This document shows positions 9,738 to 57,800 of a DNA stretch of 64,000 nt, piece after piece. The DNA is from Escherichia phage C6. The notes under the pieces were generated by a model that was not told where the DNA came from, did no database searches, and worked only from the letters and a program-made list of their open reading frames with translations. The stretch lies in sequence record MW679410.1. One strand, 5' to 3'. How positions within the stretch are numbered: position 1 is the stretch's first letter; each line of letters starts with the position of its first letter. The position numbers and the translations under genes were made by a program.

Positions 9738-10004
9738 CTATGCAATCTTAACTCGACGATTGATGATATCACGGAAGTCAATACGATTTTCTTGGATTTT
9801 CAGCCAGTTACCAGATTTGTCTTTGGTATGGGTAGAGTATTCACCGTTCCACCAGAAGTCAGTTTCATAAGCTAGGGCTTCGTATTTCTTAACCAATGCA
9901 TTAACTGCATTACCGTTAGGATTGGTACCAAATTTTTCTACCAGAGCTTTGATGTCTTTGTCAAGGTTAGAAAGTGTAGTACGGATAAAGTTTAATTTGT
10001 TCAT
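9738..10004 (-). CDS. Hypothetical early protein, 88 aa, at the position occupied by segD in T4
   Basis: Minus-strand ORF between late genes 23 and 24; start taken at the second Met (10004) because GAGGAG lies 7 nt upstream; own early-type promoter at 10034-10063; not GIY-YIG-like. Confidence 0.6.
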   Translation of the reverse strand: MNKLNFIRTTLSNLDKDIKALVEKFGTNPNGNAVNALVKKYEALAYETDFWWNGEYSTHTKDKSGNWLKIQENRIDFRDIINRRVKIA

Positions 10005-10033
10005 TTTTAATCTCCTCATGTTTTGATAGGTCT

Positions 10034-10063
10034 ATAGTAACACGACGCTTTTTGTGTGTAAAC
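10034..10063 (-). promoter_or_regulatory. Early-type sigma70 promoter for the 88-aa ORF
   Basis: Minus strand GTTTAC (-35), 18-nt spacer, TACTAT (-10) with TG two bases upstream. Confidence 0.55.
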
Positions 10064-10106: not shown

Positions 10107-11387
10107 ATGGCTAAAATTAACGACCTTTTAAAAGAGTCGACCACTACTTCGAGTTCTTCGATTGGTCGTCCAAATTTAGTAGCTTTAACCAGAGCTACGA
10201 CCAAACTGATTTATACCGACCTTGTAGCTCAGCAGCGTACTAACCAACCTTTGGCTGCTCTATATGGTATCAAATATCTTACAGAAAAAAACGAATTATC
10301 TTTCCAGACAGGTGCTACTTATTCTGGTGCAGTATCCGCTAAAGACCGTGCCTCTATCCCAGTTTTCACTGCAGGTGCTGTTTACGCTAAAGATGATTTG
10401 TTCCAATTTGAAAACGTAGTTTATAAAGCTTTGGTAGCAACACCATTTGCAGGTGCTACTGGCGATGAATACGAACAACTTCAAGAAGCTATTGTTAAGT
10501 TGACTATTCGTATTATGTCCGAAGCCGCACTGACTGAGCGTTTTGAAGGCCTCCAGGATGTAGATGTTTCTGAAGCCAAATTCGTCGTTAATAAATGGAA
10601 CGCTCCAGTTAAATCCCGTAAGTTGAAGAGTACTGTTACTGTAGAACTGGCTCAAGACCTCGAAGCAAATGGTTTCGATGCCCCTAATTTCTTGGAAGAC
10701 CTCCTGGCTACTGAAATGGCTGATGAAATCAACAAAGATATTCTTCAGTCCCTGGTTACGGTTTCCAAGCGTTATAAAGTTGAAGGTTTGTGTGATGACG
10801 GCTTAATTGACCTGAGTTATGCTAACTCACCGGAAGCTTCTCGCAAGCTTTATGAAATAGTTTGTGAAATGGTTTCTCATATCCAGCGCGCAACCTCTTA
10901 TACGGCAACTTATGTAGTAGCGAGTACTCGCGTAGCCGCTGTTCTGGCTGGTTCTGGCTGGTTAAGACATACCCCACAGAACGACAAATATCTTTCTGCA
11001 AATGCATACGGATTCCTGGAAAATGGTTTGCCTGTGTATTGTGATACCAACACGCCAATTGATTATGTTACTGTAGGTGTTAAAGAGGAATTTGGTGGGA
11101 AAGAAGCAGTAGGTTCTTTGTTCTATGCGCCGTATACAGAAGGCCTTGATTTGGCTGACCCTGAACATGTGGGTACATTTAAAGTGGTCGTTGACCCTGA
11201 AAGCCTGCAACCATCTATTGCATTAATGGTTCGTTATGCACTGGCTGCTAACCCTTATACGGTTACTTCCGATGATAAACAAGCCCGTATTATTGATGCG
11301 ACTAATATGGATTTGATGGCGGGACGTTCTGATATGTCCGTATTGCTTGGTGTGAAACTTCCTAAAGTTTTGACTGAATTAAACTAA
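10107..11387 (+). CDS. 24: Capsid vertex protein gp24
   Basis: 426 aa; MAKINDLLKESTTTSSSSIGRPNLVALTRATTKLIY and ELAQDLEANGFDAPNFLEDLLATEMADEINKDILQSL match T4 gp24. Confidence 0.95.
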   Translation: MAKINDLLKESTTTSSSSIGRPNLVALTRATTKLIYTDLVAQQRTNQPLAALYGIKYLTEKNELSFQTGATYSGAVSAKDRASIPVFTAGAVYAKDDLFQFENVVYKALVATPFAGATGDEYEQLQEAIVKLTIRIMSEAALTERFEGLQDVDVSEAKFVVNKWNAPVKSRKLKSTVTVELAQDLEANGFDAPNFLEDLLATEMADEINKDILQSLVTVSKRYKVEGLCDDGLIDLSYANSPEASRKLYEIVCEMVSHIQRATSYTATYVVASTRVAAVLAGSGWLRHTPQNDKYLSANAYGFLENGLPVYCDTNTPIDYVTVGVKEEFGGKEAVGSLFYAPYTEGLDLADPEHVGTFKVVVDPESLQPSIALMVRYALAANPYTVTSDDKQARIIDATNMDLMAGRSDMSVLLGVKLPKVLTELN

Positions 11388-12424: not shown

Positions 12425-12538
12425 AAATCACCATAATAAATATAATTAAATAGAAGAGCTAGTAGTCTTCTGTCACCAAGCCAAATGGTTTAACGGAAGG
12501 ACCTAGACCCATTATAACACACCTAAATTTAAAGCATA

Positions 12539-12748
12539 TTACTTTGAACTAGAACGCGCTTTGCGCCGAACCTTGTTGTTCAATCTTTTACGATAAACAA
12601 CCTTTTCTTTCGCTTTAAATTTGGCCTTGGCTTGTTCTACATCAACCCATGCTTTGGCCATGTCCTTAGCGGTCCCGCCCATTTTTTTAGCAATTTCTAT
12701 AAAATTCAACCCAGATTCGTGTAAAAAATGTACTTTAACCTTATCCAT
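12539..12748 (-). CDS. Hypothetical small basic protein (24.2/24.3 position)
   Basis: 69-aa ORF between rnlB and hoc, lysine/arginine-rich C-terminus; no recognisable domain. Confidence 0.5.
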   Translation of the reverse strand: MDKVKVHFLHESGLNFIEIAKKMGGTAKDMAKAWVDVEQAKAKFKAKEKVVYRKRLNNKVRRKARSSSK

Positions 12749-12819
12749 AACAATTCTCTCGTTGAGTTGGTAAAACCCATCTTAACATAGAATTTTTAAC
12801 TTGTAAACAGGAATTTTGT

Positions 12820-24271: not shown

Positions 24272-24562
24272 TTATTTACGGAACGAAATGAAACCTGCTG
24301 TGGTCATTAGCGGTTGCTTTTTAACAAACACCGTAACTGAAATAGGAGCTTCAGATTCGAGTTGTCCTGTCACTACACCGTTAAAAATGTTTTCGGTTTG
24401 TTCTGGATGAGAAAAATTCTCAACAGGTCGGATATCAAACTGTTTGTCTTCACCGAAAACTCGACGTAATTCATTACCCACTGCACTGTCAAACTCTTCA
24501 GAAGCAGGGATAACGTTTTCAACTACCAGTTCTTGACCATTAAAACGGAATGCAGATTTCAT
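24272..24562 (-). CDS. Hypothetical early protein, 96 aa (alt.-3 position)
   Basis: ORF with GAGGAG RBS and an early-type promoter at 24591-24620; between gene 54 terminator and the alt array. Confidence 0.6.
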   Translation of the reverse strand: MKSAFRFNGQELVVENVIPASEEFDSAVGNELRRVFGEDKQFDIRPVENFSHPEQTENIFNGVVTGQLESEAPISVTVFVKKQPLMTTAGFISFRK

Positions 24563-24590
24563 AATGTTCTCCTCATGTTTGTGTAAGGTA

Positions 24591-24620
24591 ATAGTACCAC
24601 ATCCTTGTGGTGTTGTAAAC
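24591..24620 (-). promoter_or_regulatory. Early-type promoter for the 96-aa ORF
   Basis: Minus strand GTTTACA, 18-nt spacer containing the inverted repeat CCACAAGGATGTGG, TACTAT; leader ...CATGAGGAGAACATTATG. Confidence 0.55.
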
Positions 24621-26743: not shown

Positions 26744-26746
26744 TAT

Positions 26747-28792: not shown

Positions 28793-28795
28793 TAT

Positions 28796-31114: not shown

Positions 31115-32638
31115 TTATAACCCAGTTTGAGACCAATCACCGAATACATCTTCAAATGTATCAGCTTCTGTTTTATCGAAACGCCAACCTTTAATAATTG
31201 GAAGGAAAATACCTACGGTATCAGTACGTCCTTTAGAATGAACCCAACCATTACATTCACAGTCGGCAATACGGCCAATCAATTTACCTTCACGAGCTTG
31301 TTTCATAAGAAGTTCACGGTCTAAATCAGGACGGTCTTCCAATGGAATCAATACCTTTTTACCTGATTTATCTTTCTTATGGGTAGTATCTTTAAAGCCT
31401 GAACCACAGTCACTTGTAATTCGACGACAACGTGATACCAACTCGACACCACCTAGTTTGTTAGGGTCCTTCGAGTGTTCATAATAACCTACCACTTCTA
31501 AAGCAATATCAATTACTTCTTTGAACTTGATAAGATTCTTAGAACGGCGGTTTTCCCAGTAGGAGTCCATGTTCTTAAGGATAATACCTTCCAGGCCCTG
31601 GTCGACATATTTCTTATAAACGACTTTAGCTTCTTCAAGATTATTAACCCACTGGTTTTCGATAGCTTCAACACGCGTTGTACCATGCAATACGACATTA
31701 TGAGCAACCATAAGTTCTAAGGCTGTAAAGCGTACATCATACTTATCGCCTTTAATTTTACCTTCGGAATATACGACATCCAATGGGACATAATCCCACG
31801 CCTGTAATACCATACCAGCGGCTTCGGTCGGAGTAATAGTTCCTTGAAGAGCCTTGTTAGCCAAGCCGTTTGACGTGGAACGATCGGCGACAGTTTGGAA
31901 TTCCTTAGCCTTACTTAATTCAGGAAGTTCCTCATCAAACATACTAAACAAATCATTAGATGCTTTAGGTTCTACCTTAGGAGTATGGTAAACTAATTCG
32001 CCGTCAATCATAACACCATTAGGATGGCGTTGTCGAGCTTCTTCGGTCATGGTCATTAATTCAGCAGCCAAAAGATTAAGCCCTTGATATTCGTTACCAC
32101 CACGAGTAAGGAATGTCACACCATCGTTACGAACTTCAGCAAAACAACGAGCGCCATCAGCTTTTAATTGGGCAAACGCAGGCCATTTAATATTTTTCTT
32201 AATCAAAGCTTCATCATAAGAACTAGCCAACATCTGCGGTTGTTCAGGGATTAAACCTTTCCAAACCTTGTTAGCAATAGAAATTGATGCACCACATTCA
32301 AGGTCACGCATCATTACACGACGTAATACCTCGGCATCTTGTCCCTTAGCATCAGCAATGATTTGAGCCAGTTCTTCAATAGCTGCATTACCCGTAATCT
32401 TACGTGTGGCTAATGTGAATTCAGCGAAATCAAGAAGGTCTTCAAGAGTAATCATACCAAAGGATTGAGACGTAAATCCAGGTTCCGGCCACTTTTTAAT
32501 GCCATAGTTCAAACGACGAGTATAAGCCATACGATAAACACGTTTCAGAAGCTCATTGTCCTTTTCACGAGCAATAATAGCTTCTTTAGCTTTAGTAGAA
32601 TCAATAGCAGCAATTTCGTTTAAAATATCTAAAATCAT
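31115..32638 (-). CDS. 30: ATP-dependent DNA ligase gp30
   Basis: 507 aa; MILDILNEIAAIDSTKAKEAIIAREKDNELLKRVY...QLKADGARCFAEV (adenylation KxDG motif)...LEGIILKN matches T4 DNA ligase. Confidence 0.95.
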   Translation of the reverse strand: MILDILNEIAAIDSTKAKEAIIAREKDNELLKRVYRMAYTRRLNYGIKKWPEPGFTSQSFGMITLEDLLDFAEFTLATRKITGNAAIEELAQIIADAKGQDAEVLRRVMMRDLECGASISIANKVWKGLIPEQPQMLASSYDEALIKKNIKWPAFAQLKADGARCFAEVRNDGVTFLTRGGNEYQGLNLLAAELMTMTEEARQRHPNGVMIDGELVYHTPKVEPKASNDLFSMFDEELPELSKAKEFQTVADRSTSNGLANKALQGTITPTEAAGMVLQAWDYVPLDVVYSEGKIKGDKYDVRFTALELMVAHNVVLHGTTRVEAIENQWVNNLEEAKVVYKKYVDQGLEGIILKNMDSYWENRRSKNLIKFKEVIDIALEVVGYYEHSKDPNKLGGVELVSRCRRITSDCGSGFKDTTHKKDKSGKKVLIPLEDRPDLDRELLMKQAREGKLIGRIADCECNGWVHSKGRTDTVGIFLPIIKGWRFDKTEADTFEDVFGDWSQTGL

Positions 32639-34722: not shown

Positions 34723-35088
34723 TTAGATATCGAATTCGTTCAGAACTACATCAAAGATTGCTTCCAGGTGTTCAGGTTTAGCTCTGTTGCTCAGGATGTG
34801 TCGAATCCAAGTTTTAACCAGAAGCTTACGATTAACACCGTTCCAGCAAGGATGGGTACCTAAATCACGTTGACGGAAATCATCATCTAAAGCGATTTTA
34901 AAAGTAGAACCTTCCATTGTGATTGAAACCGTAATACCATTTTCAAAGCGCATATAAACGTAGTTAGGAGTCATGCACTGCTCGATTTCGCACACCGTGC
35001 CGTTGTTGTGTTTCCACAGGCAAATAACTTCAGAAGAACCAGCGATACCGTTAGAAACATATTTACGTTCGAAGTTGATGTAGTTCAT
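34723..35088 (-). CDS. Hypothetical early protein, 121 aa
   Basis: ORF preceded by an early-promoter cassette at 35130-35158 and the leader ...GGAGAATAAAATG. Confidence 0.6.
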   Translation of the reverse strand: MNYINFERKYVSNGIAGSSEVICLWKHNNGTVCEIEQCMTPNYVYMRFENGITVSITMEGSTFKIALDDDFRQRDLGTHPCWNGVNRKLLVKTWIRHILSNRAKPEHLEAIFDVVLNEFDI

Positions 35089-35118
35089 TTTATTCTCCAG
35101 TTTGTTTTCGTATTATTT

Positions 35119-35158
35119 GGTACAGGTCTATAATAACACAACCTGTACCAAAGTAAAC
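35119..35158 (-). promoter_or_regulatory. Early promoter cassette with stem-loop over the -10 box (PeSL-like)
   Basis: Minus strand GTTTAC, 17-nt spacer, TATTAT; inverted repeat GGTACAGG...CCTGTACC brackets the -10; leader ...GGAGAATAAAATG. Confidence 0.55.
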
Positions 35159-35162
35159 TGTT

Positions 35163-35531
35163 TTATGCAACTTTAATCCAATTATCTAAATTTAATTCAC
35201 CTTTGGCTTTCATTTTTTCAATCAAATCGTCAGCAGTAGTGCGACCATTTTGATACCATGTAACATCTTCAGAATAACCAGTTTCTTCATCTTCATAGGT
35301 CTTACAACGAATCTTACCGATTATGATGGTTTTCAGTTCGTAGGTATCACCGGTAAAAAAGTTTGTTACCATAATTTTCCAAGAGAAGTCATCAGAAGGA
35401 CCTTCCGGAGTCATGCAACCTACAAATTCAAATTGTTCTTTGTACAAGCGCCATTGCATTTCTTTAGTTTCGATTGCTTTGTAACCGTCGTGGTCTTTAC
35501 ATTTGATATATGAGTTAAGATTGATTTTCAT
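35163..35531 (-). CDS. Hypothetical early protein, 122 aa
   Basis: ORF preceded by a near-duplicate of the same promoter/leader cassette (35540-35601). Confidence 0.6.
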   Translation of the reverse strand: MKINLNSYIKCKDHDGYKAIETKEMQWRLYKEQFEFVGCMTPEGPSDDFSWKIMVTNFFTGDTYELKTIIIGKIRCKTYEDEETGYSEDVTWYQNGRTTADDLIEKMKAKGELNLDNWIKVA

Positions 35532-35539
35532 TTTATTCT

Positions 35540-35601
35540 CCAGTTTGTTTTCGTATTATTTGGTACATGTCTATAGTATCATGCCTACTAGAGATGTACA
35601 T
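35540..35601 (-). promoter_or_regulatory. Second copy of the promoter/leader cassette (degenerate -35)
   Basis: Near-duplicate of 35090-35160 (TTTTATTCTCCAGTTTGTTTTCGTATTATTTGGTACA.GTCTATA); -10 TACTAT, -35 region ATGTAC. Confidence 0.4.
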
Positions 35602-35643
35602 ACTTTTTTGCAAATAAAACGAAAAAAGGAACCCGAAGGTTCC

Positions 35644-36000
35644 TTACTTAATGATGATACGAGGATTAAGCTCTGCCGTGTAGTAATTTACAGCCTTAGT
35701 AACTATAGCTTCACCTTTAGGATTTGCCAGAACCCATTCACGGGCTCGTTTGTGAGCTTCTAATTCAGTCAATAATCCGGACCTTTGACACCCTCTGTCT
35801 TGGGTACCTGCTTCTGTTAAAAAAGCAACTAGGTAGATCGCGTTTTCATAAGGCGTGGCGGGCGGTACGTATACAGGCGGGCTTGGCGGGTTATATGCCG
35901 CGGGATGATGTGCCGGAATTCCATCATACGGCCCTGTACCTGGCACCGCGTAAGAGGCGCCGCGAGGAGAAGTAAATGTATGATTATATCTATCGTTCAT
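35644..36000 (-). CDS. Hypothetical proline-rich protein, 118 aa
   Basis: ORF with a Pro-rich N-terminal half (PAAYNPPSPPVYVPPATP); follows the terminator-like hairpin at 36019-36036. Confidence 0.5.
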   Translation of the reverse strand: MNDRYNHTFTSPRGASYAVPGTGPYDGIPAHHPAAYNPPSPPVYVPPATPYENAIYLVAFLTEAGTQDRGCQRSGLLTELEAHKRAREWVLANPKGEAIVTKAVNYYTAELNPRIIIK

Positions 36001-36010
36001 AATATTTCCT

Positions 36011-36036
36011 ACAAAAATGGGACTCCGAAGAGTCCC
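36011..36036 (-). terminator. Terminator after the 53-aa ORF
   Basis: GGGACTC-TTCG-GAGTCCC hairpin followed on the minus strand by AUUUUUG. Confidence 0.6.
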
Positions 36037-36041
36037 ATAAC

Positions 36042-37181: not shown

Positions 37182-37239
37182 ATTTAATCCATATTGTTTT
37201 GTTGATAGATTAATAATAACACGCTATTCTTAAAGCATA

Positions 37240-38655: not shown

Positions 38656-38884
38656 CAATATACACCCGCTGCGCTTCGACCAGACCATCAGAACCAAGTT
38701 TCAACTGGGTAATCTGGCCGCCATTTTTAGGATTAACGATAACCAATACCGCACGTGGTGATTCCTGAATTACTCGCAGAGTTGCATCAGGAAAACGTAC
38801 AGAAACCTTATTAATCAGGGCCTGAGCAAATTCTTTAACTTTAACTTGGAACTGCTCTACAGTAATAGGTTGTTCGCTCAGCAT
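38648..38884 (-). CDS. Hypothetical early protein, 78 aa
   Basis: ORF; ATGA overlap with the upstream gene. Confidence 0.5.
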   Translation of the reverse strand: MLSEQPITVEQFQVKVKEFAQALINKVSVRFPDATLRVIQESPRAVLVIVNPKNGGQITQLKLGSDGLVEAQRVYIDA

Positions 38885-39438
38885 CAGATTGTCTCCAACT
38901 TAAGTTGTTTGGTAGTGGTAGCTTGGGTAACGTCGCCTTTAACAATATAACACACTTGTTGGAACGAACTGGTCAAAAGCTCTTCAGCCTGACGATCGGC
39001 TTGTTCCTTTGTGTTATGGCGAGAATGAACTTCAATCTTACCATTTTTAACAATAAGCACTTTCCAATCGGCTGTAGCTTTTACTGGCTTAGGTTCGTCA
39101 TTTTCAGGAATACTTACCGATACCGTCGGACGTGCCACTTCAATGAAGTATTCGAATTCATGAGCAAATGCACCTGTTGAATTAAAGAGAACACCATCTT
39201 TAACATCAGGATTACCGGTAATTTTGCCCATATCAGAAAACATCATTTCATCGTATATACGAATTCGGCTTACACGCGGCTTCCCATTATGGTAAATAAT
39301 TTCAACTTCAAACGGATTCATACCTACATACTTGGCAAAAGCCATATTAGTCATGTAAGCACCGTTACCAGTGAATTCATTTTTATAATGGTCACTTATA
39401 AACTTGTAAAACTTACGCTCTTCAAAGAACTTACTCAT
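38884..39438 (-). CDS. Hypothetical early protein, 184 aa
   Basis: ORF with a strong AGGAAATCGAAATG-type leader; no recognisable motif. Confidence 0.6.
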   Translation of the reverse strand: MSKFFEERKFYKFISDHYKNEFTGNGAYMTNMAFAKYVGMNPFEVEIIYHNGKPRVSRIRIYDEMMFSDMGKITGNPDVKDGVLFNSTGAFAHEFEYFIEVARPTVSVSIPENDEPKPVKATADWKVLIVKNGKIEVHSRHNTKEQADRQAEELLTSSFQQVCYIVKGDVTQATTTKQLKLETI

Positions 39439-39506
39439 TTCGATTTCCTCATTTGTTTCGGTAAGGTCATCATATCACCGTCCTTGGTGAAAGTAAACAC
39501 CTTTTT

Positions 39507-41398: not shown

Positions 41399-41402
<4 letters not shown>

Positions 41403-41881
41403 ACACCGAGTTCCTTATAAAGTTCTTCACGGCAAGTTTTAAGGGTTTTACCTGATTCGTAAGCAACACTTTCAGGAACATCGCCAAGGGTTACAGCGGA
41501 TTGCATTTGGCCATGGCGTTTAGCCGCGTATTCAAAACTTTTCACTAGCTCACGAATACGTTCTTTTTCATTGTACTCTTCAATGAATTCAGGGTATTCC
41601 CAAACCGGACGCATCATACGATACCACTGTTGGATGGTAATATAATTACTTCCATCCAAATTAATAATCTGCGAAGGCTCAATAGACCCTGGAGCATAAA
41701 AAGTTACCTGTCTTACTACATCAATACCGTCCACAATAGCCCAAGCAAAATTGAAAGTTGCCTTCTTTTCAATTGGTGTACTTGCACAGGACCCTAATTT
41801 TAAGAGCTTTTGTAATGCGGGAGATTTAATACTTGAAATGTATTCAGGCTTAGCCACAAAACTGTTATCACGTAAAGTCAT
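41399..41881 (-). CDS. Hypothetical early protein, 160 aa
   Basis: Start moved to the Met at 41881 (GAGG upstream); the ORF-track Met at 41917 lies inside the -10 box of the promoter at 41916-41945. Confidence 0.55.
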
Positions 41882-41915
41882 AATAATTTCCTCAAATTTT
41901 ATAATCCGTAGGAGC

Positions 41916-41945
41916 ATTATACTCTGCTCCCAAGAGTTTGTAAAC
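41916..41945 (-). promoter_or_regulatory. Early promoter for the 160-aa ORF
   Basis: Minus strand GTTTACA, 17-nt spacer, TATAAT; inverted repeat GGAGCA...TGCTCC spans the -10. Confidence 0.55.
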
Positions 41946-42689: not shown

Positions 42690-43177
42690 TTGGTAATAAT
42701 CTCGATGATGTCATCACGTGACAGGGAATTAATAAGAACCGTTTTAGGATTTTCGCACTGAATTTTGTACGTTTCGAACATAAAACACAATTCTTCAGCG
42801 GTATGGTAAGGACTTGAAATGCCGAGGCGATTAAACTTGTCGCTTAATGGGTCGCAAATCAAATAGAAAGTGATGCCTGAGATTTTAACATTAGGTTGGC
42901 TAATATTAATGAACACCTCGGCATCGTACTTGGAAAGGTTGTTTTGGAGAAACTCAACCATAGAGTTAACAGCTTCTGGCATGGCTTCACGCTTTTCTTC
43001 TGCATAACGGGTAGAGTATTCTTTTTGCTTGATTTTCTTTTTAGCATTTTTAGCTAAAGTAACACGAAGATCGGTCAGGTAACCTACTGCACGAGAACCT
43101 TTAAAAACTTGGATACCGTCAGTAGAGTCACCAAAAGCCTTAACAACCATTTCGTTAGTAATCATTTGCATATTCAT
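42677..43177 (-). CDS. Hypothetical early protein, 166 aa (position and size of T4 alc; identity not confirmed)
   Basis: ORF upstream of rnlA with GAGGAG RBS and an early promoter at 43209-43237. Confidence 0.55.
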   Translation of the reverse strand: MNMQMITNEMVVKAFGDSTDGIQVFKGSRAVGYLTDLRVTLAKNAKKKIKQKEYSTRYAEEKREAMPEAVNSMVEFLQNNLSKYDAEVFINISQPNVKISGITFYLICDPLSDKFNRLGISSPYHTAEELCFMFETYKIQCENPKTVLINSLSRDDIIEIITKCLN

Positions 43178-43208
43178 TTTGTTTTTCTCCTCATTAGTTG
43201 GTAAGTCT

Positions 43209-43237
43209 ATACTAACACATCATGAGGAGATGTAAAC
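43209..43237 (-). promoter_or_regulatory. Early promoter upstream of the 166-aa gene
   Basis: Minus strand GTTTACA, 17-nt spacer, TAGTAT; leader ...AATGAGGAGAAAAACAAAATG. Confidence 0.55.
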
Positions 43238-44795: not shown

Positions 44796-44821
44796 AGCAA
44801 TAAGGGGCCGAAGCCCCGTCC

Positions 44822-48437: not shown

Positions 48438-50214
<1,777 letters not shown>

Positions 50215-50224
50215 TATATTTTCC

Positions 50225-50464
50225 TCACGCTTTCTTAGCGATTTTCCAGTCAGCTTTAAATTGGTCCACATCAGAGTGGTGAACCCAGAAACCGGATGAG
50301 CTACCATCTTCATAAAGAGGGCACCCATCACAATCGTCTTTCCAACCCATTTCACACAAAGCTTGTTCAGCTTTTTCCAGAGCTTCTGGATTTTTACCTT
50401 GGATTGTGAAGTACCATTTACCTTTAACTTCAGAATCGTTGATTGATTCACGTTGTAATTTCAT
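50225..50464 (-). CDS. Hypothetical early protein, about 79 aa
   Basis: Start at the Met at 50464 preceded by AAGGAG; early promoter at 50490-50519. Confidence 0.55.
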   Translation of the reverse strand: MKLQRESINDSEVKGKWYFTIQGKNPEALEKAEQALCEMGWKDDCDGCPLYEDGSSSGFWVHHSDVDQFKADWKIAKKA

Positions 50465-50489
50465 TTTATTCTCCTTAGTTGACAAGGCT

Positions 50490-50519
50490 ATAGTATCACT
50501 ACCATAGCCTGGTGTAAAC
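50490..50519 (-). promoter_or_regulatory. Early promoter cassette
   Basis: Minus strand GTTTACA, 18-nt spacer with imperfect inverted repeat, TACTAT; leader ...AAGGAGAATAAAATG. Confidence 0.55.
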
Positions 50520-50747
50520 TTATTTTTGAATTAAGCCCATATAAAATTTAGCGTCTTCCGGGTGCATACCGTCACAATACTCGTCAGCCATAAAGCGGGT
50601 AAGGTCTTCAAGAGGACCTTGGACTTCAATTTGCATACTGCAGAATTGCGTATCTTTAATATGGGTCATAACTAAAGAAGGATAACGATTACGGATAACT
50701 TCGTAAGTGTATTCAAAATCAACGATATCAATATTAACCTTAGCCAT
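50520..50747 (-). CDS. Hypothetical early protein, about 75 aa
   Basis: Start at the Met at 50747 preceded by GAGG; early promoter at 50780-50808. Confidence 0.55.
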
Positions 50748-50779
50748 TTTATTTTCCTCACTCATTAGTTGATAGGTCT

Positions 50780-50808
50780 ATAGTATCATGTTTAAAGCAG
50801 ATGTAAAC
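50780..50808 (-). promoter_or_regulatory. Early promoter cassette
   Basis: Minus strand GTTTACA, 17-nt spacer, TACTAT; leader ...ATGAGTGAGGAAAATAAAATG. Confidence 0.55.
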
Positions 50809-50810
50809 AC

Positions 50811-51071
50811 TTATTTTTGAATTTTATCGAGCCATTTACCAAGTTTAATCATTTCTTTGGTAGCTTTTTCCATACTTCTGAATTTAACCAGTAAAGGTTG
50901 GGCATCAACACCCATAACTAAAGTGGTTACAAGGCTATGTTCACCTACAAGCCATAAGGAATACGTTTGGATATCGAGGCCATAATTTCTGTCTTTATGA
51001 ACTCGTACACCCATCACTTCAAATTTCTCACTGGCTTTTTCTACTGCATCCAGGAAATCATCTTTAGTCAT
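50811..51071 (-). CDS. Hypothetical early protein, about 86 aa
   Basis: ORF; start placed at the Met 1 nt after the upstream stop (TAA-T-ATG). Confidence 0.45.
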   Translation of the reverse strand: MTKDDFLDAVEKASEKFEVMGVRVHKDRNYGLDIQTYSLWLVGEHSLVTTLVMGVDAQPLLVKFRSMEKATKEMIKLGKWLDKIQK

Positions 51072-51072
51072 A

Positions 51073-51456
51073 TTAGGCCTTAAAAGTTTTTTGCAAAAGT
51101 TCAATGATTTGGTCAACGTTCTGTTCGGTGACAATGCAATGGATTTGAGTTACGCCCGCCTTAGTAATGGGTTCGTCAACTTCATCTTGTTCGGCATATT
51201 CACGGAAGCAATAGAACTCGTCTTCATGCAACTCAAAATAATTTGGCCCTAACCCAACTTCATTATAAATCTCGCCGTTAGCGCATTCGATTTTAGTCAC
51301 AAATTTGTCGCCATCTATAGTCAACATATCCTTTACTTCAAACCAACCACCGTTGTCTTGGATAAGGTCGACCATATCGTTATTATTGATAGGGGTGATA
51401 TTAATAAAAGCTTTGATACACTCAGGGCGAAGTTCGTATTTTTTACCGATTTCCAT
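51073..51456 (-). CDS. Hypothetical early protein, 127 aa
   Basis: ORF with GAGG RBS and an early promoter at 51486-51514. Confidence 0.6.
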   Translation of the reverse strand: MEIGKKYELRPECIKAFINITPINNNDMVDLIQDNGGWFEVKDMLTIDGDKFVTKIECANGEIYNEVGLGPNYFELHEDEFYCFREYAEQDEVDEPITKAGVTQIHCIVTEQNVDQIIELLQKTFKA

Positions 51457-51485
51457 TTTTATTTCCTCATGTAGTTGATAAGTCT

Positions 51486-51514
51486 ATAGTATCATGTTTA
51501 AAGGCATTGTAAAC
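51486..51514 (-). promoter_or_regulatory. Early promoter cassette
   Basis: Minus strand GTTTACA, 17-nt spacer, TACTAT; leader ...CATGAGGAAATAAAAATG; near-identical to the copy at 50780-50808. Confidence 0.55.
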
Positions 51515-51523
51515 CATTAAATG

Positions 51524-51550
51524 CCAAAAAGGGAAGACCGAAGTCTTCCC
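51524..51550 (-). terminator. Rho-independent terminator after gene 32
   Basis: GGGAAGAC-TTCG-GTCTTCCC hairpin followed on the minus strand by UUUUU. Confidence 0.8.
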
Positions 51551-53774: not shown

Positions 53775-54722
53775 TTAATAAAAATCAGCTACTGTAGCGG
53801 TTAGTTTAGACAAACCGGATTTAACGAAATAAGGATAAACTTTAGATTTCGAAGGTTTGTTATACGTATTATATCTTTCAGTAATTAAAGCAACAATATC
53901 ATCTGGAATAAAGTCCATATCAATTAAGATTTGGTTTTCACAGAAACGTTCATATTGTTCTTCAGTAAGAAGTGTTTTAATTATATCATGGTCATAATAA
54001 TTAAGAGCAATTGCTTCAAGTTCCTTGGCACGAGTGCTAGGAGTACGTTCGCCTTCAACCATTGTCAACCAGTAATCACCGCGAACTTTAATACTCGCGA
54101 CGTTATCTTTACGGTCGCCTTTAACTACTTTAGTTACACAATCCAGTAATGAGTCACCAGATTTCGTTTTGACGAATTTTTTCTGCATTGGAGACCATTG
54201 TTTTACCCCAGGGAATTTATGGAGTTGAGTAAAGTCACCGTCCGAAGAACCAATCATTACCGGATGGCCTAAAGCCGTAAGGATTCGGGTTAAAACCGCA
54301 ATATGGTCATCAGCTTCGATTGTATCGATATTCATAACAATATAAGGCATGTTTTGTTCCAGTTCATCAACAATAATATGCATTGCTGTGAATAAACCTT
54401 CCCAATCAAATGGTGATTCGTCACGTGCCTTAGCACGGTTTTTCTTATAATAAGAAGAATAACGACGACGCCAATAGCCGGATTTGGAGTTATCAACACA
54501 AATAATCAATTGGTTGTAACCTTGTTTTTTAAAGTCTTTAATATTTTTCTTAATTGAATTCAACACGAGGTGTCGAAGCATTGCTGTGGTTACTTTAGGA
54601 AATCCAGCATTTTCACCAAATTCTTGGAATGCTGCAGCCATAATGATTTGGCTAAAGTCTAACAACAAGAATCCATCTTTTTGACGTTCTTCTTCAGGAA
54701 GTAAAAAATCTAAATCGTTCAT
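53775..54722 (-). CDS. rnh: RNase H / 5'-3' exonuclease (FEN-1 family)
   Basis: Matches T4 RNase H (...ILNSIK...KSGYWRR...YKKNR.KAR.ES.....W...Y..............MPY...D..EADDHIAVL...SSDGDFTQLHK..VKQWSPM); start moved to the Met at 54722 (GAGG upstream) because the ORF-track Met at 54755 lies inside the promoter -10 box. Confidence 0.9.
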   Translation of the reverse strand: MNDLDFLLPEEERQKDGFLLLDFSQIIMAAAFQEFGENAGFPKVTTAMLRHLVLNSIKKNIKDFKKQGYNQLIICVDNSKSGYWRRRYSSYYKKNRAKARDESPFDWEGLFTAMHIIVDELEQNMPYIVMNIDTIEADDHIAVLTRILTALGHPVMIGSSDGDFTQLHKFPGVKQWSPMQKKFVKTKSGDSLLDCVTKVVKGDRKDNVASIKVRGDYWLTMVEGERTPSTRAKELEAIALNYYDHDIIKTLLTEEQYERFCENQILIDMDFIPDDIVALITERYNTYNKPSKSKVYPYFVKSGLSKLTATVADFY

Positions 54723-54753
54723 ATGAACCTCTGTCCAATTAGTGTAGAGGTTC

Positions 54754-54782
54754 ATTATATCATGACCCTAGAAGAAGTAAAC
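54754..54782 (-). promoter_or_regulatory. Early promoter for rnh
   Basis: Minus strand GTTTAC, 17-nt spacer, TATAAT. Confidence 0.55.
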
Positions 54783-54829: not shown

Positions 54830-57800
54830 ATGGCTGATATTTTAAAACCTGCATTCCGTGCTACATCCGGACTCGATGCTGCGGGCGAGAAAGTTATCAA
54901 TGTTGCCAAAGCCGATTACAATGTATTAGATGATGGCGTCAACGTTGAATTCTTTATAGATGAGAACACCATCCAGGCGTACGACGAGACGCGCGGATAT
55001 AAGAATGGGTTTGCAGTAATCCATGACCAACGTATCTGGGTTGCTCAACGTGATATCAATGCTCCTGCAGGAACTTTTACTCCCGGCTATTGGACTGCTA
55101 CCCGTACTGACCCTAAATGGATTACCGTAGCGTCTCCTACACGCCAGCTGGCTTCCGGTGAATATATTGCGGTGGATTCCGCTGCTAGCTTTACTACATT
55201 TACCCTGCCTCCTAACCCTACAGATGGTGATACCGTTGTAATTAAAGATATCGGCGGACGAGTGGGTTATAACGAAATCAAGGTCCAATCTAGTTCTGCT
55301 CCTGGCGGTGGTAACCAGAAAATTGTTCGTTTTGGTAATCAGTTCTCTGAAACCCTGATAACTAAGCCTTTTTCTTATAACATGCTTATCTTTGCTAACC
55401 GTCTTTGGCATTTCTGGGAAGCAGGTAATGAAGAACGTGGTATTCGTGTAGAACCGAACATGGCCCAGTTCCAATCACAAGCAGGTGATAACGTTCTCCG
55501 TCGTTATACTTCAGGTGCAGTAATTAAGTTTACTCTTCCTAAGTATGCGAACCAAGGTGATATGATTAAAACCGTTGATATCGATGGTTTAGGAAGTAAG
55601 TTCAACTTAATCGTTGAAACGTTTGATGCTTCATCTGCATTAGGTAAGCCTGGACAGCATAGCATGGAATTCCGTACCTCCGGTGATGGATTCTTTGTTT
55701 ATAACTCTACCGAAAAATTATGGTATGTTTGGGACGGTGACCGTCAAACTCGTTTACGTGTAATTCGTGATGATGTTGAGCTCTTGGCTAATGAAAGTGT
55801 TATTGTTTTTGGCCCTAATAATACAACGCCGCAGACGATTAATATCACATTACCCACAAGCGTAGCCCAGGGTGATGTCGTTAAGATTGCTCTGAACTAT
55901 CTCCGTAAAGCTCAGACGGTAAATATTAAGGCTTCTGTAGGAGATAAAATAGCTTCTTCGGTTCAATTGCTCCAGTTCCCTAAACGTTCTGAATATCCGC
56001 CAGATACTGAATGGGTATTGAATGATGTATTGACCTTCAATGGTAACTTAAGTTATACTCCGGTTATTGAACTGAGTTATATCGAAGACCCCACTACAGG
56101 TGCTAAATATTGGGTTGTTGCTCAGAACGTTCCTACTGTAGAACGCGTGGATTCTAAGGATGATTTAACCCGTGCTCGTCTAGGTGTTATTGCTCTGGCG
56201 TCACAGACCCAAGCAAACGTCGACCACGAAAATAATCCTGAAAAAGAACTGGCTATCACACCGCAGACTTTAGCTAATCGTGTAGCTACTGAATCACGTC
56301 GTGGTATTGCTCGTATTGCTACAACCGCTCAGGTAAACCAGAATACCGAATTTGCATTCCAGGACGATTTGATTATTTCTCCTAAGAAATTAAACGAACG
56401 TACTGCTACCGAAACTCGTCGTGGTGTCGCTGAAATTGCTACGCAACAGGAAACTGATGCTGGTGTTGATGATACAACCATTATCACTCCTAAGAAGCTA
56501 CAGACGCGCCAGGGAACTGAAATCCTGTCCGGTATAGTAAAATACGTATCCACCACAGGAACCACTCCTGCGACTTCTAGAGCAACTGTAGGTACTAACG
56601 TTTATAATAAGAACACAACTACTTTAGTTATTTCTCCTAAAGCTTTGGACCAATATAAAGCTAACTATGAGAACCAAGGCGCTGTATATCTTGCTACGCA
56701 AGCCGAAGTTAATGCGGGTGCTACTAACCCTGGTTTTAGTAACTCAGTTGTTACACCTGAAACATTAGGTGCTCGTCGTGCTACTGATACCAATCATGGT
56801 TTAATTGAAATTGCTACGCAAGCAGAGACTGATACTGGAACTGATTATACTCGTGCGGTAACGCCTAAGACGTTAAATGACAGGAATGCTACTCAAACAC
56901 TTACCGGTATTGCTCGTATTGGTACTCAAGTAGAATTTGATGCAGGTGTATTAGATAATGTTATTTCAACTCCGTTGAAAGTTAAAACAAGATTTAATGA
57001 TACTGCTAGAACTTCTGTCTCAGCAGCCAGCGGTTTGGTTGAATCAGGAACCTTATGGAACCATTATACACTAGATATCCGTGAAGCAAGTAATACTCAA
57101 CGTGGTACGGCTCGTTTGGCTACCCAAACTGAAGTTAATACTGGTACCGATGACAAAACAATCATCACTCCACTTAAGCTTCAAGCTAAAAAGGCTACCG
57201 AAAACGCTGAAGGTATTATCCAACTCGCTACTCAGGCCGAAGTTATTGATGGTACGGTAAGTAATAAAGCGTTTAGTCCAAAGCATTACAAATATATCGT
57301 TCAACAGGAAAAATCCTGGGAAGCTACTTCTGCTCGTAGAGGATATGTTAAATTAACCACAGGTACAGCCACTTGGGAAGGTGATGATACTAATGGTTCT
57401 GTTGCTAACCTGGCTAAATTTGAAGATTCCGGCTTTGCTATTTCCCCTCTTCAAATGAATACAGCATTAACTCACTATCTTCCGATTAAAGGTAAGGCTT
57501 TTGACTCTGATAAATTGGACAACCTGGATAGCTCTCAGTTCGTCAGGAGAGATATTGACCAAATAGTTGAAGGAACATTAACCCTTCGTAAAAACATCAG
57601 AGTAGATGGCCAGTTGGCTACAGGCGGTACCGGTGAATTTGGTGGTTCTTTAGCTGCTAATAGCACATTTACCCTCCGTAATACAGGAACGGCTACGCGT
57701 ATAGTATTTGAAAAGGGTCCTCAAACGGGAACTAACCCTGCCCAATCTATGAGTATTCGCGTATGGGGTAACCAATTTGGCGGTGGGTCCGACCAAACCC

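Follow-up and report, generated by a model that had tools for sequence, protein, structure and literature searches.

Our analysis reveals that a 64-kb stretch of DNA (in the following, the window) from a JS98/IME08-like (Dhakavirus) T4-type coliphage, whose identity to known genomes reaches about 95%, carries 12 copies of a cassette composed of an early promoter, a leader and a ribosome-binding site (Table 1). Judged by their sequence, these sites are very probably T4-type early promoters (Pe) of the UP/-35/TGn/-10 class, and our high confidence applies to the best explanation as a whole, which covers promoters, hairpin classes, RegB sites and occasional exchange between cassettes. All 12 copies are located on the minus strand, in intergenic positions and in the orientation of the early (prereplicative) genes, and neither the plus strand nor coding sequence yielded a comparable match. 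The element is already described in kind, both as T4 early promoter and as PeSL cassette, and the copies in the window are further members. We name each cassette by the position of the G of its -35 box (e.g. 12808, 39498, 54782).

Table 1. Early promoter cassettes and neighbouring terminator hairpins in the window
Feature	Coordinates	Strand	Remarks
Early promoter cassette before 88-aa ORF (9738-10004)	10002..10063	-	
Weakest early promoter-like site, before 69-aa ORF (12539-12748)	12746..12808	-	-10 TAAGAT; score 21.6
Early promoter cassette before 96-aa ORF (24272-24562)	24560..24620	-	
Early promoter cassette before 30.7 (ATG 35088)	35086..35158	-	SD 35088-35098 fits RegB consensus
Early promoter cassette before 30.8 (ATG 35531)	35529..35601	-	degenerate -35 ATGTAC
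Terminator hairpin AAGGAACCTTCGGGTTCCTT + T-run	35626..35645	-	directly upstream of cassette 35601
Early promoter cassette, cd.3 / 184-aa ORF (38884-39438)	39436..39498	-	weak repeat only
Early promoter cassette before ORF160 (41399-41881)	41879..41945	-	-10 TATAAT
Early promoter cassette before alc (ATG 43177)	43175..43237	-	
Early promoter cassette before frd.1 (ATG 50464)	50462..50519	-	
Early promoter cassette before frd.3 (ATG 50747)	50745..50808	-	no hairpin
Early promoter cassette before frd.2	51454..51514	-	-35 GTTTAC 51509-51514; TGn; -10 TACTAT 51486-51491; leader; SD GAGGAA; ATG 51456
Gene 32 intrinsic terminator hairpin GGGAAGACTTCGGTCTTCCC + T-run	51531..51550	-	directly upstream of cassette 51514
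Early promoter cassette before rnh (ATG 54722)	54720..54782	-	T4 promoter at same junction

A sequence-only reading of this DNA had proposed nine minus-strand sites, all of which are present and correctly placed, but it overlooked three more (12808, 39498 and 54782). The formula given for them holds strictly at six sites (GTTTAC-N16-19-TAYTAT, 0.13 expected from shuffles), whereas 41945 has TATAAT and 43237 TAGTAT as -10 box, and 35573-35601 starts with the degenerate -35 box ATGTAC. Relaxed to GTTTAC-N16-19-TANNAT, the formula gives 11 matches, all of them intergenic and on the minus strand with none on the plus strand, compared to 1.28 +/- 1.03 in shuffled sequences (maximum 4), which is an enrichment of about 9-fold. 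These exact-consensus tests are independent of the two-block weight matrix that we ran across the window, and which separated exactly 12 sites (scores of at least 20.7) from the background, the next real match scoring 14.0 and the maximum over 20 simulated 64-kb sequences being 18.6. As 11 of the 12 sites served as seeds for this matrix, they score high by construction and only 35601 (score 21.5) is independent. The T4/PST consensus TTTACW-N17-TAYWAT fits eight of the sites. Besides its deviating -10 box, site 12808 also has a poor Shine-Dalgarno (SD) sequence.

It is scarcely credible that the motif recurs by chance or represents MotA-dependent middle or gp55 late promoters. A generic sigma-70 scan of the region, with 50 matches against 54 expected, showed no enrichment and would fit chance. 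Only the phage-specific consensus is informative, and its enrichment, exclusively intergenic and on one strand, argues against chance. In line with this, we looked for the motif at equal frequency in coding regions or on either strand and did not find it. The middle and late classes were rejected, as the sites have GTTTAC at -35 and neither a MotA box (TGCTT at -30) nor the late TATAAATA, and separate MotA-box-like sites are found elsewhere in the window.

The architecture of the sites is uniform. GTTTAC forms the -35 box in 11 of 12 cases, the exception being 35601, the spacer to the -10 box measures 17 or 18 nt throughout, TGn (extended -10) is present in 11 of 12, and the 25 nt upstream of the -35 box contain 73% A+T compared to 60% in the whole window. 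All 12 reach from the -10 box to the ATG within 25-41 nt, ending in SD and ATG, and thereby stay inside the bound of about 100 bp for PeSLs. The leader described earlier is borne out, though it varies among sites: it ends in (C)ATGAGGAG at 10063, 24620 and 43237, in a GAGGAA variant at 39498, 41945, 50808 and 51514, and in (A/T)GGAGAATAAAATG at 35158, 35601 and 50519. Downstream of 10 cassettes we find small ORFs that belong to PHROG families without an assigned function or have no annotation other than frd.1 conserved hypothetical; the remaining two precede rnh and alc.

In T4, GTTTAC-type promoters occupy seven orthologous junctions (30.7, 30.8, cd.2, alc, frd.1, post-gene 32 terminator and rnh). 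The promoter at the cd.2/cd.3 junction is early promoter Pe133295 (GenBank note), with which 39498 agrees by position, and the T4 orthologue of the 51514 promoter follows the gene 32 terminator. In the window, the gene 32 terminator hairpin and cassette 51514 directly behind it represent the terminator-plus-promoter (PeSL) arrangement. Promoters of the UP/-35/TGn/-10 class are used in T4 by unmodified E. coli sigma-70 RNA polymerase (PMC2988021). The earlier claim of early promoters with leader and ribosome-binding site is thus well founded in a T4-type sigma-70 architecture and in the co-orientation with early genes, and from sequence and T4 orthology we infer transcription starts, timing and promoter strength. 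The promoters would be used by the unmodified host polymerase immediately after infection, and each is fused to a 5' leader of about 18-34 nt with a strong GGAG/GAGG SD and ATG at its end. With its own promoter, leader and SD, each downstream small gene would therefore form an autonomous immediate-early unit. The map indicates which small genes of unknown function are such units, the usual candidates for host takeover or anti-defence.

The 12-site map also settles the starts of rnh, frd.3, ORF160 and the 88-aa ORF, and promoter features are absent from the related GenBank records examined. The proposed start corrections agree with JS10 for rnh (53775-54722; 948 nt in JS10) and frd.3 (50520-50747; 228 nt), and ORF160 (41399-41881) is deleted in IME281 and Bp7 by a deletion that begins at the proposed ATG. 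The 88-aa ORF sits between two large plus-strand ORFs (8129-9688 and 10107-11387), which by size and position only correspond to gp23 and gp24.

Besides the promoter elements, about half of the cassettes (about five of 12) contain clear hairpins. The inverted repeats noticed earlier are significant as a set, the summed repeat score exceeding 300 of 300 shuffles and the summed folding energy 500 of 500, but they are clear at about half of the sites only. The stems enclose the -10 box in cassettes 35158, 41945 and 50519 and pair with the SD in 43237, 35601 and 54782. Terminator hairpins lie upstream of 51514 and 35601; as this holds solely there, an intrinsic terminator was rejected as a general cassette part. 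A stem-loop is also not obligatory, since the search at all 12 sites found none at 10063, 12808 and 50808, and the spacer hairpins of 24620 and 39498 are not significant. The repeat claimed for 24597-24610 was mis-described; cassette 24620 has only a 6-bp ACCACA/TGTGGT hairpin inside the spacer (P=0.25). Across 35 Dhakavirus early promoters, the mean repeat score is 17.2, compared to 12.2 for shuffled spacers (P=4e-5) and 13.5 for spacers swapped between promoters (P=0.005), and 18 T4 sites give 20.3 versus 12.8 (P=2.7e-4). We used these per-sequence statistics with shuffled and swapped spacers and gave up analysing the frd.1 stem for covariation column by column, since the register of the stem is not the same in T4 and Dhakavirus.

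Among the stems around the -10 box, the repeat claimed as GGTACAGG/CCTGTACC at cassette 35158 is real and extends to 12 bp (TTTGGTACAGGT/ACCTGTACCAAA, 35116-35152; z -3.8), and T4 has the same stem. Cassette 50519 carries a 7-bp repeat AGGCTAT/ATAGCCT (50485-50510; fold -19.8 kcal/mol, z -4.2), and frd.1 stems of different lineages differ at the same place by compensatory changes (AGGCTAT, GGGTTAT, AGGGTA, GGTGTAGA). The 6-bp GGAGCA/TGCTCC of cassette 41945 lies at 41911-41930, as claimed, and in a paralogous cassette upstream of gene 55.2 in JS10 the stem is altered in a compensatory way (G>C / C>G). Instead of the hairpin-free form seen at 50808, the orthologous promoters of L007, L008, L009 and JS10 bear a -10-bracketing repeat. 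As no U-run follows them, the -10-bracketing hairpins do not qualify as canonical intrinsic terminators, and any role assigned to them is tentative.

The other class connects the spacer with the SD. At alc, the spacer TCTCCTCAT (43222-43230) can base-pair with the SD region ATGAGGAGA (43186-43194); in predicted folds the read-through RNA reaches -17.9 kcal/mol (z -3.2) with the SD paired, whereas RNA from the embedded promoter has 0 kcal/mol and an unpaired SD, as expected in silico for a mask. The spacer TCTCTAGT of cassette 35601 (35587-35594) pairs with the SD site ACTGGAGA (35537-35544) including one G.U pair, and cassette 54782 has a 10-bp hairpin ATGAACCTCT/AGAGGTTCAT (54723-54755) that starts where the -10 box ends and reaches the SD. 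Spacer-SD helices of 9-15 bp with compensatory changes are also predicted for dexA, regB, denV and alc of JS10 and T4: four paired positions distinguish the dexA pair TTCTCCTCATG/CATGAGGAGAA from the regB pair ATCTCCTGTAG/CTACAGGAGAT, and T4 alc uses different bases from alc of the window, as does T4 regB in its own pairing. Not all orthologues of a gene would have a masked SD, as alc of L054 and L056 bears a -10-bracketing stem instead. Compensatory changes are seen in both hairpin classes, which are also found in JS10 and T4, and these changes indicate that selection acts on the stem-loops themselves. That the spacer motif (A/T)TCTCCT keeps recurring might be due in part to shared ancestry of the cassettes and not to selection, but the swapped-spacer control and the compensatory flanks indicate that ancestry does not account for all of it.

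The endoribonuclease RegB, together with S1, recognizes GG*AGRAYARAA in the SDs of T4 early mRNAs (Durand et al., 2006, reviewed in PMC3014915), secondary structure protects from RegB (PMC3014915), and regB is annotated in Dhakavirus JS10. Perfect GGAGRAYARAA occurs only three times in the window, as the SDs of frd.1 (GGAGAATAAAA, 50464-50474, the perfect strong consensus), 30.8 (35531-35541) and 30.7, which at the sequence level makes them candidate RegB/S1 sites and would fit a rapid shut-off of these early messages. The SD of 10063 is one base off, whereas most other cassettes have GAGGAA-type SDs that fit the minimal GGA only.

How could the hairpins work? In about half of the promoters, the spacer would double as the 5' arm of a hairpin, and because this arm is upstream of the transcription start, the hairpin would form in read-through RNA only and not in RNA from the own promoter. 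Stems enclosing the -10/+1 region would most likely serve as attenuator, insulator or 3'-end stabiliser for upstream transcripts; promoter and attenuator assays were made in RB49, and attenuation is demonstrated for one PeSL of this phage (PMC2839356, PMC4122927). An anti-SD in the spacer would leave read-through RNA translationally masked and RegB-protected and promoter-initiated RNA open. We tentatively extend this to the possibility, which we rate somewhat below even, that a sizeable subclass of T4-type early promoters encodes in the spacer an anti-Shine-Dalgarno for the driven gene and so sorts two RNA populations, with alc and 30.8 (window), dexA, regB and denV (JS10) and regB, denV and alc (T4) as examples and the stems around -10/+1 as a related class. 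Read-through (delayed-early) RNA would be silent in translation and RegB-resistant, and promoter-proximal (immediate-early) RNA would be open to translation until RegB, after a short time, inactivates it. If true, this would amount to a general device, built into the promoter, that makes translation of an accessory early gene depend on the promoter of that gene, and it would explain the selection of stem-loops in PeSLs independent of a role in recombination. The spacer anti-SD class, kept from Dhakavirus to T4, suggests a simple post-transcriptional role for the hairpins.

Alternatively, the hairpins might act in the DNA, for example as cruciforms or single-strand hairpins for a recombination or replication protein. 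We consider this improbable, and to our knowledge there is no dedicated recombinase for such stem-loops, which counts against it. The repeats are symmetric in DNA, the RNA role of the -10-bracketing stems is unclear because they do not touch the SD, and the PeSL authors speculated on a DNA-binding protein that targets the stem-loops (PMC2839356). However, several helices need G.U pairs that work only in the RNA of this strand (35601 and the 15-bp T4 regB helix), the anti-SD class hits the SD precisely, and with loops of 23-42 nt the extrusion of a cruciform is disfavoured.

Several cassettes share long stretches outside the consensus of promoter and ribosome-binding site. The noted near-identity of 35158 and 35601 amounts to 51 of 52 positions from the -10 box to the ATG with an exact run of 39 nt, and the copies diverge on both sides. 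A tandem duplication as its cause was rejected, as a comparison of the proteins gives no clear relationship (E=0.034 over 28 aa) and the DNA identity is restricted to this stretch. Exact runs between cassettes measure 22-39 nt in the window, including the 22-nt spacer CTTTAAACATGA common to 50808 and 51514, and 32 nt across loci of different phages, as for the 24620 leader, which recurs before alc of another phage (L051). P(frd.3) and P(nrdC.11) of T4 have 58 exact nt in common, and 41945 shares about 70 nt with the JS10 55.2 cassette, the homology ending at the -35 box and at the ATG. Such long runs outside the consensus make it highly improbable that the likeness reflects independent constraint for a strong promoter and a good ribosome-binding site with no common descent or exchange, even if the consensus (-35, TGn, -10, GAGG/GGAG SD, A-rich spacer before the ATG) makes up much of the shared sequence and the RegB/S1 consensus can explain GGAGAATAAAATG (PMC3014915).

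Common descent with occasional exchange fits better to these data. From the promoter to the ATG, the mutually similar cassettes would offer 60-70 bp, and recombination or gene conversion would occasionally homogenise them, copy them before unrelated genes and permute the modules they flank. The sequences suggest that the similarity suffices for homologous exchange, and exchange is evidenced in several ways. An allele swap of 30.8 is bounded exactly by cassettes 35601 (leader/ATG) and 35158 (-35). The gene frd.3 precedes frd.2 in T4 and follows it in the window, in L008 the frd.3 and frd.2'/orf86 modules stand in another order than in L009 and the window, and L007 has an extra promoter-led frd.2 paralogue; the breakpoints are at cassettes 50808 and 50519. 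Moreover, near-identical cassettes, among them the 41945 type, stand before unrelated genes.

The same events, together with the mini-circles demonstrated for RB49 and phi1 (PMC2839356), would also support the stronger idea of the cassettes as active mobile elements (PeSLs in the strong sense), with recombination via excised mini-circles as the principal driver of gene turnover here. We regard this as unlikely. Checking, as had been suggested, whether cassette-flanked ORFs are those that vary between genomes, we compared the indel boundaries of six Dhakavirus genomes at 41 junctions and found them at 4 of 9 cassette junctions versus 15 of 32 others (odds ratio 0.9, P=0.69), a test of low power due to this small sample. 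In these six genomes, the cassettes are not the main source of indels. Most indels affect junctions without a cassette (among them cd.1, nrdA.1, td-frd, the ORF between frd and frd.1, homing-endonuclease ORFs and an intron), where 5-20 nt microhomologies at stop/start overlaps or terminator hairpins are found. In addition, seven cassettes are at positions conserved since the split from T4, the stem-loop is missing or not significant at the five sites named above, and the frd.2a duplication and the ORF160 deletion involve only the SD-ATG end of a cassette. The proposed mediation of modular shuffling is only partly supported, by the 30.8 swap, the frd.3/frd.2/orf86 permutations and cassette paralogy, but not by enrichment at indel boundaries. 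Among individual events, the loss of ORF160 also agrees with a boundary at a cassette.

In comparison to T4 early promoters, the sites in the window agree in the -35 box GTTTAC, the 17-18 nt spacer, TGn, the -10 box TA(c/t)(t/a)AT, the A/T-rich upstream region, orientation, intergenic placement and seven genomic junctions. In contrast to T4, the window prefers TACTAT as -10 box, and AGACCTATCAAC behind it extends the consensus, specifically in this lineage, into the first transcribed positions. In addition, the gene content behind some promoters differs (frd.2 replacing frd.3, an extra 184-aa ORF before cd.2). The predicted masks resemble those of T4 e, soc, 49 and I-TevI, where SD masking in read-through RNA is known (PMC3014915): the promoter is inside or at the 5' arm of the hairpin and the SD in the 3' arm, an arrangement predicted here for alc, 30.8 and rnh (window), dexA, regB and denV (JS10) and regB, denV and alc (T4). 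In the T4 examples, however, the embedded promoter is late and the masked RNA early, whereas the embedded promoter of our cassettes is itself early, and such a mask would limit translation to promoter-proximal, immediate-early messages.

PeSL cassettes have been described in RB49/phi1, T4/PST and KVP40/nt-1 by Arbiol et al., 2010 (PMC2839356) and Comeau et al., 2014 (PMC4122927), and PeSL-like sequences of JS98 were already mentioned in 2010 (PMC2839356). The SD-masking class with its anti-SD spacer is not discussed in PMC2839356, where the word "translation" never occurs, and the passages of PMC4122927 that we considered make no mention of it. The resemblance noted by the sequence-only reading holds for early promoter, leader and ribosome-binding site at all sites and extends to the stem-loop in about half of them but not to the rest. 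Like PeSLs, the cassettes are composed of an AT-rich stretch, an early promoter and an SD with ATG, to which part of the sites add a stem-loop, located upstream of the promoter (51514, 35601) or overlapping the -10 box (35158, 41945, 50519), and they bound some ORF swaps and permutations. Unlike PeSLs, only about half possess a stem-loop that is significant, none shows the G-run/C-run stems of RB49, and six relatives have no excess of indel boundaries at cassettes. Our data thus test the PeSL idea independently in another T4-like lineage, the fourth, in which cassettes form paralogous families and sometimes bound gene swaps, yet are not preferred indel sites in six genomes. Similar to lambdoid morons and integron cassettes, the analogies used by the PeSL authors, the units are small accessory genes with their own expression signals; in contrast to them, they have no integrase and no attC-like site, carry a promoter inside each unit, and many of them keep positions that are conserved across genera.

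Judged by sequence, the twelve cassettes of the window (early promoter, leader, Shine-Dalgarno (SD) sequence and ATG, named by the window coordinate of the first -35 base on the minus strand) have the architecture of T4 early promoters, the 'UP/-35/TGn/-10' class for unmodified sigma-70 polymerase (PMC2988021), with which they agree in every feature assessable at that level. Across the whole window, GTTTAC-N16-19-TANNAT occurs at 11 sites against 1.28 ± 1.03 expected, all of them intergenic and on the minus strand, while non-coding sequence makes up only ~6% of the window. The published T4/PST consensus for promoter-early stem-loop (PeSL) elements, TTTACW-N16-18-TAYWAT, which is independent of this window, finds 8 sites versus 0.72 expected, again all intergenic and minus-strand. 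Using a two-block weight matrix seeded with 11 of the 12 sites, we found 12 sites scoring at least 20.7, with the next match at 14.0 and the top of 20 simulated sequences at 18.6; the one non-seed site, 35601, scores 21.5. Spacers measure 17-18 nt in 12/12 sites, TGn is present in 11/12, A+T amounts to 73% in the 25 nt before the -35 (60% overall) and the -10 box lies 25-41 nt from the ATG. On 82 kb of the relative JS10, the same matrix yields 26 further sites, all on the early-gene strand; one of them, inside an annotated CDS (L058, 23758), was left out of the analysis. The strict formula of the sequence-only reading matches 6 sites versus 0.13 expected, and the nine sites it listed are all among the twelve, but it missed 12808, 39498 and 54782 (-10 box TATAAT), and its formula does not describe 35573-35601, where the -35 is ATGTAC, or the -10 boxes of 41945 (TATAAT) and 43237 (TAGTAT). 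As evidence against the motif it had named an equally frequent occurrence within coding sequence or on both strands; this was checked and is not the case.

In a database comparison, the flagged stretch and the surrounding 20.8-kb segment show 91-96% identity to Dhakavirus genomes (IME08, QL01, IME281, JS10/JS98, Bp7 and others), with no identical record among the matches. By synteny with annotated relatives and T4, the minus strand from 24 to 55 kb carries prereplicative genes, in the order 30.x, rIII, 31, cd, pseT, alc, rnlA, denA, nrdB, nrdA, td, frd, frd.1-3, 32, 59, 33, dsbA, rnh. GTTTAC-type promoters occupy orthologous junctions in T4 before 30.7, 30.8, cd.2, alc, frd.1, rnh and the first gene past the gene 32 terminator, and the one before cd.2 is named early promoter Pe133295 in the T4 GenBank record. 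Behind 10 of the 12 window cassettes lie small ORFs of unknown function, nine of them in PHROG unknown-function families and frd.1 annotated only as conserved hypothetical; rnh and alc follow the other two. Read on the minus strand, the flagged region runs gene 32, terminator, promoter, frd.2, 86-aa ORF, promoter, frd.3, promoter, frd.1. This frd.2-orf86-frd.3 order (50520-51456) is the reverse of frd.3-frd.2 in T4 (locus L001, 3644-4303), where a plain stem-loop without promoter stands between the two genes and a small unannotated ORF lies between the frd.1 promoter and frd.1. A mechanically called ORF at 49873-50328 overlaps frd.1 (50225-50464) by ~100 nt. Judging from where indels end in IME08 and Bp7 (49876-50213), the real gene would span ~49873-50211, and the 266-aa 'frd' annotated in IME08 across the 49873-50464 area looks like an annotation artefact.

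Moving the starts of rnh, frd.3 and ORF160 to a downstream ATG, as had been proposed from the sequence, proved right: annotations of JS10, IME281 and dhaeg give 948 nt for rnh (53775-54722) and 228 nt for frd.3 (50520-50747), and a deletion in IME281 and Bp7 (41403-41878) extends from the stop codon of ORF160 to its proposed ATG. ORF160 (160 aa, 41399-41881, behind cassette 41945) is a member of phrog_4482, and the records of IME08 and JS10 leave its stretch without annotation; part of it is replaced in JS10 and dhaeg, and IME281 and Bp7 lack it through a precise deletion. An 88-aa ORF is wedged between plus-strand ORFs 8129-9688 and 10107-11387, by size and position gp23 and gp24, and is a moron-like early gene within the late block. 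Three tandem paralogous minus-strand ORFs (24620-30880; 707, 681 and 694 aa; 40-46% identity) are, by position, putatively alt-like. Besides, the window holds five sites resembling MotA-box middle promoters, where 0.87 would be expected. Site 37213 precedes the gene 31 homologue, and site 57063 is probably a chance match. In another T4-like lineage of ~170 kb, GTGTACA appears as early-promoter -35 upstream of alc (L053, L055, L057) and of frd.1 (L007, L008); before alc it occupies the loop of a G4/C4 hairpin (AAGGGGTGTACAAGCCCCTT) similar to the polyG/polyC stems reported for RB49 PeSL.

As a set, the 12 cassettes exceed their shuffled versions in the number and strength of inverted repeats, with a summed repeat score of 98.5 versus 76.3 ± 3.8 and a summed folding energy of -166.5 versus -123.5 ± 9.0 kcal/mol (0/300 shuffles as high or reaching this value, respectively). 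A stricter test, in which the hexamers were fixed and the spacer and downstream sequence alone were shuffled, gave 86 versus 62 ± 5.5 (0/500 as high). The signal comes from a subset, namely 35158, 50519, 41945, 43237 and 54782; among the 12 cassettes, 10063, 12808 and 50808 have no hairpin. At 24597-24610, where an inverted repeat had been proposed, the spacer forms only a non-significant 6-bp hairpin (ACCACA/TGTGGT). A classical terminator hairpin stands directly upstream of 51514 (the gene 32 terminator) and 35601 only. Of 35 early promoters pooled from Dhakavirus, 17 show significant complementarity of the spacer to either the -10/+1 region or the SD; the score averages 17.2, compared with 12.2 when spacers are shuffled (Wilcoxon P=4e-5) and 13.5 when they are swapped between promoters (P=0.005). 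In T4, 10/18 sites are individually significant (20.3 versus 12.8, P=2.7e-4).

Stems and associated features in the window and in related phages (L numbers, related-phage loci)
Feature	Position	Strand	Description
Stem, cassette 35158		minus	12 bp around -10 box; z -3.8
Stem, cassette 50519		minus	7 bp around -10 box; z -4.2
Stem, cassette 41945		minus	6 bp around -10 box
Stem, cassette 43237		minus	9 bp, spacer pairing with SD
Stem, cassette 54782		minus	10 bp, end of -10 box to SD
frd.1 stem, window			AGGCTAT/ATAGCCT
frd.1 stem, L013			GGGTTAT/ATAACCC
frd.1 stem, T4			AGGGTA/TACCCT
frd.1 stem, L015			GGTGTAGA/TCTACACC
frd.1 stem, L007			ATGGG/CCCAT
frd.1 stem, L035			ATCCA/TGGAT
ORF118	35644-36000	minus	118 aa; G+C 47.6% versus 40%
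Stretch holding ORF118	35638-36011	minus	
88-aa ORF with own early promoter	9738-10063	minus	phrog_6003
MotA-box-like site	12511-12536	minus	TGCTTYA-N10-14-TANNAT
MotA-box-like site	31481-31505	minus	TGCTTYA-N10-14-TANNAT
MotA-box-like site	37213-37237	minus	TGCTTYA-N10-14-TANNAT
MotA-box-like site	53868-53892	minus	TGCTTYA-N10-14-TANNAT
MotA-box-like site	57063-57088	minus	TGCTTYA-N10-14-TANNAT; inside large plus-strand ORF (gene 34 by synteny)

Comparison between phages points to selection on the stems. At the frd.1 promoter, a -10-bracketing stem is present in every sampled lineage, with differing sequences. From -35 to ATG, cassette 41945 is nearly identical to the cassette that precedes gene 55.2 in JS10. 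In the promoter core, which begins at the -35 and ends with the stem's 3' arm, the sole differences are G>C in one arm and C>G in the other; the leader past the core has a further substitution and a small indel. JS10 pairs TTCTCCTCATG with CATGAGGAGAA at dexA and ATCTCCTGTAG with CTACAGGAGAT at regB, two helices differing at four paired positions. T4 regB pairs UUUUCCUCUUGACUG with CAGUUAAGAGGAGAA, G.U pairs included, and at T4 alc AAGUCC..CUCGUG pairs with CAUGAGGACUU in a region folding at -26.3 kcal/mol (z -4.3). The G.U pairs together with the targeting of the SD point to a role of the stems at the RNA level.

In this context, the 5' arm of the hairpin always lies upstream of the expected transcription start, so that the hairpin is possible only in RNA from an upstream promoter. 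For alc, read-through RNA is predicted to fold at -17.9 kcal/mol with GAGGAG paired, and RNA from the cassette's own promoter is predicted to be unstructured. In the class whose spacer pairs with the downstream SD (anti-SD spacer), read-through RNA may then be translationally masked, in the way known from e, soc, 49 and I-TevI of T4 (PMC3014915). The only three perfect GGAGRAYARAA sequences (strong RegB/S1 sites) in the window are the SDs of frd.1, 30.8 and 30.7, JS10 encodes RegB, and secondary structure protects RNA from RegB (PMC3014915); with RegB sites in the SDs and protection by structure, promoter-initiated messages would be translatable and quickly inactivated. The -10-bracketing stems may serve to attenuate transcription from upstream, to insulate against it or to stabilise 3' ends; RB49 PeSL211/210 were assayed between a promoter and a reporter, attenuation has been demonstrated for one RB49 PeSL (PMC2839356), and the bracketing stems of the window are without U-runs. 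We hold SD masking at these early promoters as a tentative reading, somewhat short of an even chance; if true, specialists in phage gene expression would find it moderately interesting.

Concerning exchange, the near-identity of 35158 and 35601 noted earlier extends to 51/52 positions between the -10 box and the ATG, both included, 39 nt of them in one exact run; the flanks are unrelated on both sides and the proteins not clearly homologous. On this alignment, the common leader is evidence of exchange between cassettes. The same holds for a 22-nt spacer common to 50808 and 51514 (at the orthologous frd.3 promoter, relatives carry another spacer, one that forms a stem), the 24620 leader recurring before alc in L051 (32 nt exact), 58 exact nt common to two distant T4 promoters, and the 41945-type cassette preceding unrelated proteins (E=1.8). 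Some rearrangements also have cassettes as borders: the 30.8 coding sequence is swapped for another allele between 35157, the next cassette's -35, and 35496-35525, its own start; in relatives, ORF160 is lost or half replaced from the ATG on; and JS10, IME281 and dhaeg carry an extra frd.2 paralogue whose junction is a 19-20 nt SD-ATG repeat. Moreover, frd.3 and the frd.2/orf86 module are permuted among T4, L008, L009 and the window, and L007 has an additional promoter-led frd.2 paralogue between frd.3 and frd.1.

Most cassettes stand at positions conserved in T4. Among 41 gene junctions (33.5-54.8 kb; indels of at least 40 nt; six relatives; limited power), indel boundaries are not in excess at cassettes (4/9 cassette junctions versus 15/32 others; odds ratio 0.9, P=0.69). 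Other indels fall at cassette-less junctions with short microhomologies, homing-endonuclease ORFs or an intron, and that of ORF118 lies between two UUCG terminator hairpins (36017-36038 and 35626-35645, ~20 nt in common). ORF118 itself is found in the window only, is absent from 6/6 relatives, is without its own promoter and has only a partial PHROG match (phrog_17531, unknown function). A further UUCG-tetraloop hairpin, GGGGCTTCGGCCCC, follows nrdB (44804-44817, minus strand), and such hairpins after nrdB, genes 32 and 30.9 and ORF118 show that terminators of UUCG-loop type recur in this phage. The modular shuffling suggested by the sequence-only reading is borne out as exchange between cassettes, with some cassette-bounded events, but not as an enrichment of indel boundaries. 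Based on these comparisons, we conclude that recombination between cassettes happens, and a dominant or preferential route of gene turnover is not seen in six relatives, a sample of limited power.

The window cassettes match the PeSL description in architecture and in the similarity between cassettes, and its obligatory stem-loop only partly; its preferential indel association is not matched. PeSL-like sequences of JS98 were already mentioned in 2010 (PMC2839356), and the cassette finding is correct and cleanly demonstrable, yet largely a rediscovery. We did not find the anti-SD spacer class in the available portions of either PeSL paper, of which the 2010 one never uses the word 'translation' (PMC2839356), and older T4 literature may hold it. 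Compensatory changes support this class, which is conserved between Dhakavirus and T4.
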